Origin: a virus
Length of the DNA: 39,410 bases
Direction: 5' to 3' (one strand)
Virus record (IMG/VR): IMGVR_UViG_3300026311_000663
Shown: positions 1,665-7,902 of the stretch, piece after piece
Layout: each line of letters starts with the position of its first letter
Position numbering within the stretch: the stretch's first letter is position 1
Program-made: the position numbers and the translations under genes
Notes under the pieces: generated by a model
Told to the model about the DNA's origin: nothing
Databases searched by the model: none
What the model saw: the letters and a program-made list of their open reading frames with translations, nothing else

Positions 1665-2037
1665 GTGGAAAACTAAGCGGTTTTTGGAGTATGTGTATGA
1701 GGATTGTTTGAATTGCGGTAAACCGTTGAGGTTTGCGATTTATGAAGAAGCAGATACTTTTGACGCTAAATCGGGTAAGCCTCAGTGGGATATGGGGTCT
1801 TTTGTTCATGGTGAAAAGGCTTGTAGTTGTGGGGCTGAATTTCTTATTGCTGATGATTTGCAGAGTGTTAATATTTATTGGCTTAACAAAGACAAAATGC
1901 CTTCTCAAGAAGAATTGAAGCAGAGGGTTAAAGCTAAAAGGGTTAAGAATCCTTGGCCTGAAATTAAAAAAGCTGTGATGCCTGATCTTCTCAAGTATAT
2001 TGAGGATAAAGGTATTTTGTTGGAACGATACTGTTAA
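1657..2037 (+). CDS. Zn-ribbon protein whose C-terminus was replaced by the transposon end
   Basis: CLNC...CSC; its stop codon (2035-2037) lies inside the left TIR; original tail is at 7862-7902. Confidence 0.75.
   Translation: MRKWKTKRFLEYVYEDCLNCGKPLRFAIYEEADTFDAKSGKPQWDMGSFVHGEKACSCGAEFLIADDLQSVNIYWLNKDKMPSQEELKQRVKAKRVKNPWPEIKKAVMPDLLKYIEDKGILLERYC
2018..2026 (+). repeat. Left target-site duplication TGTTGGAAC
   Basis: Identical to 7862-7870; both copies abut the TIRs. Confidence 0.95.
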
Positions 2038-2049
2038 GTTATTTGTCAT
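2027..2049 (+). repeat. Left terminal inverted repeat GATACTGTTAAGTTATTTGTCAT
   Basis: Exact reverse complement of 7839-7861. Confidence 0.96.
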
Positions 2050-2058
2050 GGGGTGTTT

Positions 2059-3498
2059 TTATGCTTCTTGAAGCATATTAATGAATAAAGTGTCTGCTTG
2101 TTTTAATTTTTTATTATACTGTGTTTTTAAAGAGTTGACTTCATTTACTAAATCAAACATATCTTTAGCTATATTGTATTGGAGAATACCATCAGGTTCA
2201 ATTATCCATAAGTCACGGATTTGACTGATATTGATGTTAAATTGTGATGATCCTGTCTTTTGCTTATCAAATTGTAATTTTCCAAGTATAGAATTAAGAT
2301 AAACAGAAAGATATTCAGGAAGGATATGTTTGTCTAAAAGCCTTAGCCTAATAATATATGAACCATAAACATAGTTTTCAAAACCTTCTGGAACATAGGA
2401 ACAAAGCCCTACACTCCCACTACGAGCTATTAGAATATCATCTTTTTGAAGATATAGATTATTAATTTCATTTCGATAGACACTATTGGGAACGTACTGT
2501 AAGTCTGAAGCGTCAATATAATTCCTTTTGAGGTTTTCTATCCTCAGAAATGGTGTCTCACTCACATAATCAGCGCATAACGATGCGCCATACTTTAATT
2601 CATGGTTATAACTTTCAATTTTTCTTGAATTACTCACTTTGATTCTGTTTATAACATCCTCATAAAAAGGATAGTGCCATTTAACTTCGAAACGGTCTTC
2701 TTCTTGAAGTTGAGTGAGGAAGTTTTTTACTTTTGGTTCTTCTGGAAGCCGAAAACCAAGCTTATCCAGAAATATTTTATCATAAGAAGATTCTAACTGT
2801 TCTATATGTTGCTTTATTTCGGCTGCTTCCTGCCTAATTTCTTTTACAGCTTTTACAATTCTTTCCTGACCTGAAATTTCAGGTCGGAGTATCTGCAACC
2901 CCCTAATAGAAGTATAGTCTAAAGCTGGACGTGAACCCCCAGTTACATTCCTATCTGTCTGGGATCTTCCAAATTCTGAGTTAAGATATAACGCCAAGTA
3001 ATCGGGCAATATTTCATTTTGTTTTACCCTAATTTTTACAACATGTTGGTTAATGTTAGCAGGACCAATACCATTAGGAAAAACAGATGCTATGCCATAT
3101 GTAACACCTGTGATAGTAAGCAGCACATCATTAGGTAAAAGCTGTGAACGCTTTAACTCTCCTTCATGCATCTGTTTTGCTATATAAACAGCATCGGATA
3201 ATTCTAGACCAGTTCGCCTAACATTTTGGACACGAATAAAAAGTATGCCATCTGTGAGGTAAGCAGCACCCAAAGGCGTGGCTCCCCCCGTAAGGCTGTT
3301 TCTGCCTTCAACCACTAACTCTTTTAATGAAATAAGTTCAATGTCTTGATTATTGCTGATTTCTTTTAGTTTATCTATAGTTTTGAAGAATTGGGGGTCA
3401 TAAAACTGATAGTCTATTCTATCATGTCCAATTGACTGAATCGTGGTTTTTGTTTGTATATCAGCTTTCTGTTGGTTCATATTTACGGAACTCCGCAA
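2059..3498 (-). CDS. Restriction-modification specificity (HsdS-like) subunit with two TRDs
   Basis: Two TRD/conserved-region units (LLPNDVLLTITG..ILPDYLALYLNS..TGGSRPALD..Q; LQKDDILIARSGSVG..ILPEYLSVYLNS..TGSSQFNIN..Q); overlaps the end of the RM gene. Confidence 0.9.
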   Translation of the reverse strand: MRSSVNMNQQKADIQTKTTIQSIGHDRIDYQFYDPQFFKTIDKLKEISNNQDIELISLKELVVEGRNSLTGGATPLGAAYLTDGILFIRVQNVRRTGLELSDAVYIAKQMHEGELKRSQLLPNDVLLTITGVTYGIASVFPNGIGPANINQHVVKIRVKQNEILPDYLALYLNSEFGRSQTDRNVTGGSRPALDYTSIRGLQILRPEISGQERIVKAVKEIRQEAAEIKQHIEQLESSYDKIFLDKLGFRLPEEPKVKNFLTQLQEEDRFEVKWHYPFYEDVINRIKVSNSRKIESYNHELKYGASLCADYVSETPFLRIENLKRNYIDASDLQYVPNSVYRNEINNLYLQKDDILIARSGSVGLCSYVPEGFENYVYGSYIIRLRLLDKHILPEYLSVYLNSILGKLQFDKQKTGSSQFNINISQIRDLWIIEPDGILQYNIAKDMFDLVNEVNSLKTQYNKKLKQADTLFINMLQEA

Positions 3499-6901: not shown

Positions 6902-7678
6902 CTATCTTCTTCTAAAAGGCGAGGGCTCCCAAACATACAACCCAACATTTCTAACTCCTAACTTATCAAACAGGGGGTAAATTTGGTTAAATCGGTTGCT
7001 ATTATTCCGCTCAAAATGCGACCATATTGCATAGGCGCAAAAATCAGCTAGTTGTATTCCCTGACTGTACTTTGATTCGATAAAGAAGATTGATTCAATT
7101 ATGCCTTCGAGATTATTTTGGGTTTGAAACATTACTTCAGGTTTAAAGTCAAAATTCGCTTGCATGACTAAGCCCTTAAATCGCCCCTTTGTCAAGAAAT
7201 CATGAAGGGGTCTATCGCTGCTTACTGCCTCGGAATCGTATATCATTATCCCTGATTCTTTTCGCCTTTGTAAAAATTTTGAGAACCTAGAAGCCATATA
7301 ACGAACAGCTAATTGCTTAGGGTGTTCAGGTGTTGTATAAGCCTCAAAATGTTTTGTTTTATGGATGACCATAGCAAATAATGTTGGGTTAAGTTGGGCG
7401 ATTATTGAGAAAACAGAGTCAGCAAACTCTTTTCTTTGCTCATCTTTTAAAGTGTTCCAATAGCCTCTTTTGTTAATCAAGTCACCGTAGTGGATTTCAA
7501 TTTGTGCCCAGCATTTAGGAAAATATTTGAGACATAAATTATGAAGTTCTTTAAAGGCTGTGAACCATTGTTGGTGCTGTATTGCAACTCCAGTTAAAAC
7601 GTAGTAAGTATCTTTGCCTCTACCATATGGAGGTGCAAACTCTGAGTGCCCACTTGCATCAAGGAACAGTAAATACAC
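6902..7678 (-). CDS. DUF3800 family protein (RNase H-like fold)
   Basis: N-terminal LLFLDASG, YYVLTGV, IMIYDSE and C-terminal SKYSQGIQLADFCAY (QxxD) signature. Confidence 0.85.
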   Translation of the reverse strand: MYLLFLDASGHSEFAPPYGRGKDTYYVLTGVAIQHQQWFTAFKELHNLCLKYFPKCWAQIEIHYGDLINKRGYWNTLKDEQRKEFADSVFSIIAQLNPTLFAMVIHKTKHFEAYTTPEHPKQLAVRYMASRFSKFLQRRKESGIMIYDSEAVSSDRPLHDFLTKGRFKGLVMQANFDFKPEVMFQTQNNLEGIIESIFFIESKYSQGIQLADFCAYAIWSHFERNNSNRFNQIYPLFDKLGVRNVGLYVWEPSPFRRR

Positions 7679-7838
7679 TACATTTCCCCTAACGGGTATC
7701 TGTAGGTATTAGTTATAACATTTATGCAAATTCGTGTTTACCATAATTGAGTGTATTTTATGTAGCCATACCACTAACACCATCAAGGAAAAAATAGAAA
7801 ATTTAAACGAGAAATATGAAATACCAACTTTCTAAGTT

Positions 7839-7861
7839 ATGACAAATAACTTAACAGTATC
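7839..7861 (-). repeat. Right terminal inverted repeat
   Basis: ATGACAAATAACTTAACAGTATC is the reverse complement of 2027-2049. Confidence 0.96.
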
Positions 7862-7902
7862 TGTTGGAACAGTCTGGTGAATCACATTTAACCGAGAAGT
7901 AA
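7862..7902 (+). pseudogene. Right TSD plus the displaced original 3' end of the 1657 gene (..LEQSGESHLTEK*)
   Basis: Joining 2026 to 7871 keeps the frame and reaches TAA at 7900-7902. Confidence 0.85.

Follow-up and report, generated by a model that had tools for sequence, protein, structure and literature searches.

We analysed a 39.4-kb stretch of DNA from a virus record (IMG/VR IMGVR_UViG_3300026311_000663; the window, by which we mean the whole stretch), in which a discrete element of 5,835 bp, or 5,853 bp with both target duplications, occupies positions 2027-7861. It is bounded by perfect 23-bp inverted repeats, GATACTGTTAAGTTATTTGTCAT at the left end and its exact reverse complement at the right, and a 9-bp duplication, TGTTGGAAC, abuts both of them (Table 1). 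The element has six genes, one of them an intact DDE transposase, and there is no second transposase copy. Scanning the window for the terminal repeat, with up to 3 and then up to 6 mismatches allowed, returned this pair as the sole matches in both cases and no inner copy, and none of 100 shuffled versions of the window gave a repeat match. A preliminary description, made from the sequence alone, had noted perfect 23-bp repeats 5,835 bp apart, the 9-bp duplication and a single central transposase with restriction-modification (RM) genes to its left. The scan and the shuffles confirmed the ends, and the gene layout was as described. The element is very probably a unit transposon that is autonomous and has been active recently; it carries passengers in both arms, and its archaeal clade is related to the IS6 family of insertion sequences (IS). 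The earlier proposal of a non-composite, cargo-bearing transposon of IS6 type is supported by an empty allele, by a second insertion site and by a family of relatives with distal repeats.

Mobility was evident from further copies of the element and from its empty site. Three other samples yielded contigs (L001-L003) in which the same carrier has, at the same site, an element 100% identical to that of the window, and a contig from a fourth sample (L081) agrees with the window copy over the part read. A close relative of the carrier lacks the insertion at this site. Its contig L078, which comes from a different sample, matches window positions 1170-2019 at 100% identity and then passes directly into the right flank (window 7864-7896), with 5 substitutions there. 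L078 also encodes an uninterrupted version of the carrier open reading frame (ORF), whose product ends in LLEQ plus 10 residues, and the insertion has exchanged the last 10 codons of this ORF for 3 codons read from the repeat. An exact search of IMG/VR and JGI metagenome contigs for the predicted 23-mer of the empty site was negative because the real empty allele has 5 base differences near the junction; the repeat and a left-end-specific 31-mer likewise had no match in either collection.

A second site was found on a 7.5-kb contig of run SRR29243433, where the element lies between an integrase gene and a MazE-like gene and has its own perfect 9-bp duplication, ACAAAAGAC. This copy is 99.9% identical to that of the window, without gaps, over 5,454 and 4,960 bases in two overlapping loci that jointly span the 5,835 bp. 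The flanks of the second site weakly resemble window positions 34080-34380, so that the second carrier is a related mobile element and the transposon circulates among such elements. The second insertion cuts the 3' end of the integrase gene, which encodes 386 aa (L087:91-1251, L082:5455-5944). Two further, distinct flanks of the same element were present in L083 and L090. In addition, two 5,865-bp Logan contigs (L083/L089 and L084) consist of the element with 30 bases on one side and a flush repeat end on the other, as expected if the element has more than one context in those samples. Copies across sites and samples are 99.8-100% identical, cargo included. Taken together, the same-site copies, the empty allele and the second site with its cargo show that the whole 5,835-bp unit, cargo included, moves between sites as one piece, making a 9-bp duplication. 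The preliminary description had looked to an empty allele and to further copies as checks of its proposal; L078 is the former, and the latter are the copies at other sites, one of which has both junctions and a perfect 9-bp duplication. Its view that the event was recent is borne out by the identity of the copies.

Table 1. Features of the element and of its insertion site (positions in the window)
Feature	Position	Strand	Basis
Carrier ORF cut by the insertion	1633..2037	+	L078 protein ending in LLEQ plus 10 residues; junction translation
Left copy of target duplication TGTTGGAAC	2018..2026	.	Sequence
Left terminal inverted repeat, 23 bp, CTGTT at positions 5-9	2027..2049	+	Same repeat bounds relatives
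Cargo: specificity (S) subunit, two target-recognition domains, 473-479 aa	2059..3498	-	Pfam Methylase_S x2; PADLOC Specificity_I 3.5e-45
Cargo: fused nuclease-methyltransferase subunit, 652 aa, type IIB-like	3461..5419	-	N6_Mtase 2e-35, Eco57I, weak HSDR_N
Core promoter/operator region, conserved	5467..5540	+	Inter-element DNA similarity starts here
Transposase, 304 aa: zinc ribbon, helix-turn-helix (HTH), DDE (D111, D170, E210)	5541..6455	+	Pfam DDE_Tnp_IS240 1.7e-19
Core gene c2, 56 aa, ribbon-helix-helix (RHH)-like, begins right after transposase stop	6456..6626	+	Conserved after transposase
Core gene c1, about 50 aa, acidic, helical, overlaps c2	6604..6762	+	Conserved after transposase
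Nested stable hairpin between c1 and DUF3800	6841..6897	+	-28.2 kcal/mol, z = -4.3
Cargo: DUF3800 protein, 258 aa	6902..7678	-	Pfam DUF3800 3e-17
Right terminal inverted repeat, 23 bp	7839..7861	-	Sequence
Right copy of target duplication TGTTGGAAC	7862..7870	.	Sequence

Relatives of the transposase were numerous. Metagenomes contained hundreds at 75-87% identity, from Bathyarchaeia wherever the source was named, and 68 loci of GTDB genomes encode such relatives. Elements whose transposase is at least about 50% identical to that of the window made up a close set of 32: the window element itself, two on metagenome contigs (L006, L007) and 29 at genome loci. In all 32 a GATACTGTTAAG-type repeat pair, 0.8 to 6.5 kb apart, brackets the transposase gene; perfect 9-bp duplications, each different, flank 25 of them, a 9-bp duplication with one mismatch flanks another, and in L053 the duplication is 8 bp long. 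A de novo search that required an inverted repeat and a duplication gave ends to 18 more distant elements (31-57% identity, 1.87-8.0 kb, 8- or 9-bp duplications), labelled as Nitrososphaeria, Methanolobus vulcani B1d, a Methanomethyliaceae metagenome-assembled genome, Micrarchaeota and one contig binned as Saccharibacteria. They include a sister clade at about 35% identity with GGTTCTGTGAAG ends and 8-bp duplications. In all, about 50 elements of 1.9-8.0 kb from Bathyarchaeia, Nitrososphaeria, methanogens and other archaea have the same architecture. In addition to the transposase, the smallest of them (L040 and L042, 1.87-1.91 kb) still contain the two small genes and one that encodes a zinc ribbon, and close-in repeats around the transposase alone were found in none of the elements examined. 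The preliminary description had suggested that homologues might sit between distal repeat pairs with variable cargo, and every one examined was bounded in this way. The repeat sequence also co-varies with the transposase clade, which indicates that ends and enzyme belong together. The clade to which the element belongs is centred on Bathyarchaeia, and its defining features are GATACTGTTAAG ends, a 9-bp duplication and an operon of transposase, RHH gene and c1.

The DNA common to the window element and its relatives is confined to window positions 5467-6764, a core of 1.3 kb that comprises a promoter of about 74 bp, the transposase, c2 and c1. The two small genes follow the transposase in every locus with a transposase identity of at least about 48%, and were not detected by BLAST in the 35%-identity clade. 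In the promoter, two GGTATC..GATACC-type palindromes, within 5471-5526, flank a TATA-like box, and this arrangement is conserved across the clade. The c2 sequence has an RHH pattern (K-I-L-V-A-L-P followed by two helices) and no Pfam match; an AlphaFold model of the monomer placed helices at residues 10-19 and 26-43 with low confidence (pLDDT 63). Because c2 and c1 form, with the transposase and the promoter, the conserved core of the family, they are a core operon and not cargo. The preliminary description had placed an RHH and a small protein to the right of the transposase, correctly, but had counted them as cargo. Relics of inner repeats were also considered, and none was seen when core borders and upstream regions were compared.

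It could be argued that the structure is compound or nested, the distal repeats being derived from another element or from two decayed IS copies and the transposase belonging to a separate inner IS. Cargo of classical IS6 elements is moved only in this manner, as two-copy pseudo-compound transposons (PMC7986276), and among the relatives two (L010 and L033) have two adjacent right ends and another (L032) a weak inner repeat. This reading is already contradicted, and is extremely improbable, given that the window has one transposase only and no inner repeat even at 6 mismatches, that across about 50 elements the distal repeats co-vary with the transposase clade and carry the duplication, and that the conserved core has borders free of repeat relics.

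The left arm encodes what is, by its sequence, a two-subunit type IIB-like RM system. A nuclease is fused to a gamma-class N6-adenine methyltransferase and accompanied by a separate two-domain S subunit, which is the architecture of BcgI and BsaXI. The best solved relative of the fused subunit was RM.BsaXI (3.5e-34), and its N-terminal match to HSDR_N was weak (23.9 bits, cut-off 25.1). In the right arm, the DUF3800 protein had no match in PADLOC, NCBIfam or PDB and is not an established defence gene. Of the defence cargo first described on both sides, only that of the left arm is recognizable as such; no PADLOC model matched DUF3800 in the right arm. The hairpin of Table 1 lies between the converging c1 and DUF3800 genes; Rfam gave no match within 1900-8000, hairpin included, and the structure may be a candidate small RNA or a bidirectional terminator.

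Passengers varied among the 32 close elements. The recognizable ones were methyltransferase-Mrr fusions (8, of which 2 are fragments), UPF0175 with DUF3368, a toxin-antitoxin-like pair (5), nuclease-methyltransferase fusions (4), GmrSD (3), NYN nucleases (2), and a PIN nuclease, a ClpP-like protease, a MORC-like ATPase and a ParB-like protein (1 each); many further cargo genes had no recognizable family. Intact restriction genes, of type IIB-like, type II-like or type IV, were present in about 12 of the 32. When elements with transposases of 66-96% identity were compared, their homologous cargo proteins mostly shared no more than 25-60% identity, and cargo identity so far below that of the transposase points to repeated independent capture of similar gene classes and not to swapping of cassettes. 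Integron-like shuffling of cassettes between the arms had been considered, as the same clusters occur in either arm and orientation, but is contradicted by the same identities.

Several relatives showed additional features. In L010 (13374-13422) and L033 (13650-13698) two right-end repeats lie 3 nt apart, and the 9-bp duplication flanks the left end and the outer of these two repeats. The inner right repeat of L033 is of a different subtype, which hints that the end of one element was set precisely beside that of another, and such adjacent ends could provide a route to hybrid elements. In four elements the left arm contains, immediately before the core promoter, a tRNA-like gene (L013:9810-9886, L014:9798-9875, L015:9796-9874, L027:9799-9876) whose anticodon, ACT, is unusual. 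This gene is 77-79 nt long and follows one for a 223-250-aa protein of no known family (cluster c4). An 833-bp relative (L057:9839-10671) has perfect repeats and only an internal transposase fragment, and is a non-autonomous family member that resembles a miniature inverted-repeat transposable element. The genome of Methanolobus vulcani B1d, a cultured methanogen, contains one complete relative, 3,208 bp long and flanked by a 9-bp duplication (L045:8951-12158), and, at another place, a 138-bp fragment. Finally, a 4.6-kb element of the sister clade with 8-bp duplications (L061) lies on a contig in a bacterial bin of the candidate phyla radiation (Saccharibacteria), which is either mis-binning or a cross-domain occurrence.

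The carrier of the window element is plausibly a virus. The first 157 bases of the window recur, nearly identical, at 37561-37717, with 1.7 kb of sequence left after them. This recurrence suggests a circle of about 37.6 kb that was assembled past its own start and along a variant path thereafter. The carrier is dense in ORFans and encodes a protein with a PHROG match to DnaA-like initiators (5e-17), a glycosyltransferase, an A24 prepilin peptidase and a 103-aa protein whose matches to membrane families were weak and below threshold; a similar gene pattern was reported for a spindle-shaped virus of Bathyarchaeia (PMC10541130). We describe the carrier as a roughly 37.6-kb circular, virus-like element of Bathyarchaeia. 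The evidence is weak, as it consists of one PHROG match, the two enzymes and the ORFans, and Pfam and PHROGs gave no match to a capsid, portal, terminase or other structural protein. The first 10 kb of the window and the transposase had no match to phage records, and IMG/VR contained no relative of the transposase. These negative results, and the integrase gene that adjoins the second insertion site in a related element, would also suit a plasmid or an integrative element, in which case the insertion would not have been into a virus. The suggested circle, the gene content and its resemblance to that of the spindle-shaped virus speak for the virus, and we consider a non-viral carrier rather unlikely. 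Insertion into a virus, as first proposed, therefore stands as insertion into a virus-like element.

The transposase matched Pfam DDE_Tnp_IS240 with 70.8 bits (cut-off 27) and shares 25-30% identity with IS6 transposases of bacteria and haloarchaea and 27-30% with that of ISCpe7; it contains an N-terminal zinc-binding domain with four cysteines, found in the same NCBIfam profile search that is discussed below. When the transposase was aligned with others, among them those of ISCpe7 and a Haloterrigena IS6, the catalytic residues listed in Table 1 were invariant. The CTGTT motif of the terminal repeat is in the register of IS26, and both motif and register are conserved across IS6. Among known systems, one of the closest is the long zinc-finger clade of IS6/IS26, which contains ISCpe7 (clade h of Varani et al. 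2021; clades VII-VIII of Harmer & Hall 2019), with which the element shares the DDE_Tnp_IS240-type domain preceded by zinc ribbon and HTH. IS6 elements are 0.7-0.9 kb long, a few reaching about 1.8 kb, and have 8-bp duplications and GG tips (PMC7986276, PMC6807381). In contrast, the window element is 5.8 kb long (1.9-8.0 kb in its family, 0.7-1.8 kb in IS6/IS26), has six genes instead of one, holds its cargo inside one repeat pair and not between two IS copies, and has the conserved operon of RHH and small protein. The duplication is 9 bp in the window, at the second site and in 34 relatives, and 8 bp in the sister clade at about 35% identity; the tips of the window element are GA, and a GG start was seen in the repeats of some relatives. 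It is not a simple IS either, with six genes in 5,835 bp, one transposase and no second copy. Harmer and Hall argued that archaeal "IS6" elements may fall outside the family and noted that experimental data are absent for them (PMC6807381). Because membership is disputed in this way, and because the element has a 9-bp duplication, GA tips, a larger size and additional genes, we regard IS6 membership as borderline and prefer the label IS6-like. The IS6 assignment of the preliminary description is to be read as a resemblance.

Several points weigh against our reading of the element, or against parts of it. The score against the NCBIfam profile transpos_IS6 was 123.8 bits, just below the cut-off of 125. 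With its 9-bp duplication and GA tips, the element may not follow the rules established for IS26. A duplication is missing from five of the 32 close relatives (L007, L016, L024, L028, L057). The RHH fold of c2 comes from a low-confidence model only, and its binding to the palindromes is something that we infer. The chemistry of transposition could be copy-in or cut-and-paste, and the virus status of the carrier has the weakness described above.

With these points in mind, we propose the following mechanism. The transposase, through its zinc ribbon, HTH and DDE domains, would bind the two distal 23-bp repeats and join them to a target whose two strands are cut 9 bp apart, the preferred target lying 6 nt from an A/T-rich, TATA-box-like hexamer. 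By analogy with IS26, the pathway may be copy-in, with a cointegrate that is then resolved by homologous recombination. The transposase is predicted to be co-transcribed with c2 and then with the small helical c1, and c2 probably represses the operon via the two palindromes around its TATA box. The RM system probably benefits both transposon and carrier, through addiction and exclusion of competing DNA. The same element might instead move by cut-and-paste, being excised and reinserted without a cointegrate, and would then be unlike IS26 in mechanism as well as in structure. A unit transposon without a resolvase gene is easier to reconcile with such a pathway; the 9-bp duplication, the GA tips and the sub-threshold IS6 score set the element apart from IS26, and Harmer and Hall doubt that archaeal "IS6" elements, for which they note a lack of experimental data, belong to the family (PMC6807381). 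Yet the DDE domain is of IS240/IS6 type, CTGTT is in the same register as in IS26, about a sixth of the relatives are without matching duplications, as when IS26-like copies recombine, and the empty allele, being in a diverged relative, is not an excision footprint. We regard cut-and-paste as possible but somewhat doubtful.

The choice of target was sharp at the 34 sites that have a 9-bp duplication (the window and sites from L006-L076). Hexamers with at least 5 A or T bases out of 6 counted as A/T-rich; the position scored was 6 nt beyond the duplication, on one side or both, and random positions in the same loci served as background. All 34 sites had such a hexamer, against an expectation of 28% (P about 1e-19), and at 26 of them it was perfect, with all 6 bases A or T (5% expected). 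The sequences of the hexamers were TTAAAC, TTATAA or TTTAAA. About a dozen half-sites have an ORF that starts 21-37 nt past the hexamer and is directed away from the insertion, a spacing that fits a TATA box hit on its upstream side, that of the B recognition element (BRE). At the window site the hexamer is ATAAAG (2006-2011), but it is inside a coding region. Target flanks as relics of older repeats were also considered; compared by eye, the flanks failed to align with the repeat. It is conceivable, and we offer it tentatively, that the clade and its archaeal sisters are a promoter-reading transposon system that chooses sites exactly 6 nt from a TATA box, usually on the BRE side, by recognizing either the sequence or DNA bent by TBP/TFB. 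Landing beside genes and not in them would make such a system a safe vehicle for RM, GmrSD and toxin-antitoxin genes between chromosomes and viruses.

Bacterial Tn7-like and Tn3-family unit transposons ferry defence cargo, and as in these, one set of ends encloses transposition genes and variable, defence-rich cargo in the elements described here. The transposase, however, is unrelated, there is no TnsABC, TniQ or resolvase, duplication and repeat lengths are different, and the hosts are archaea. A further known system is ISDsp3 of Dehalococcoides, the one IS6-family member with a passenger gene listed in a 2021 review, which has a single IS6-type transposase and a passenger inside its own repeats (PMC7986276). 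By its description it is a single-copy element with one hypothetical passenger, whereas the archaeal family consists of dozens of elements with several variable passengers on both sides. Searches of the full-text literature yielded no account of IS6-like transposons with cargo, either from archaea or from viruses of Bathyarchaeia, ISfinder being outside this comparison. The element is a unit transposon built on an IS6-like transposase and part of a large archaeal gene-carrying family for which we found no published description.

To our knowledge, unit transposons have hardly been described in archaea. A large archaeal branch departs from the textbook picture of IS6 as single-gene elements and consists of self-contained cargo transposons of 1.9-8.0 kb. 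The target choice is sharp (34 of 34 sites), the conserved operon of transposase and RHH protein is directly testable, and the relative in cultured Methanolobus vulcani B1d is a possible experimental handle. With restriction and toxin-antitoxin-like cargo, and one copy newly arrived in a virus-like element, the family offers a concrete route for defence genes between archaeal hosts and mobile elements.

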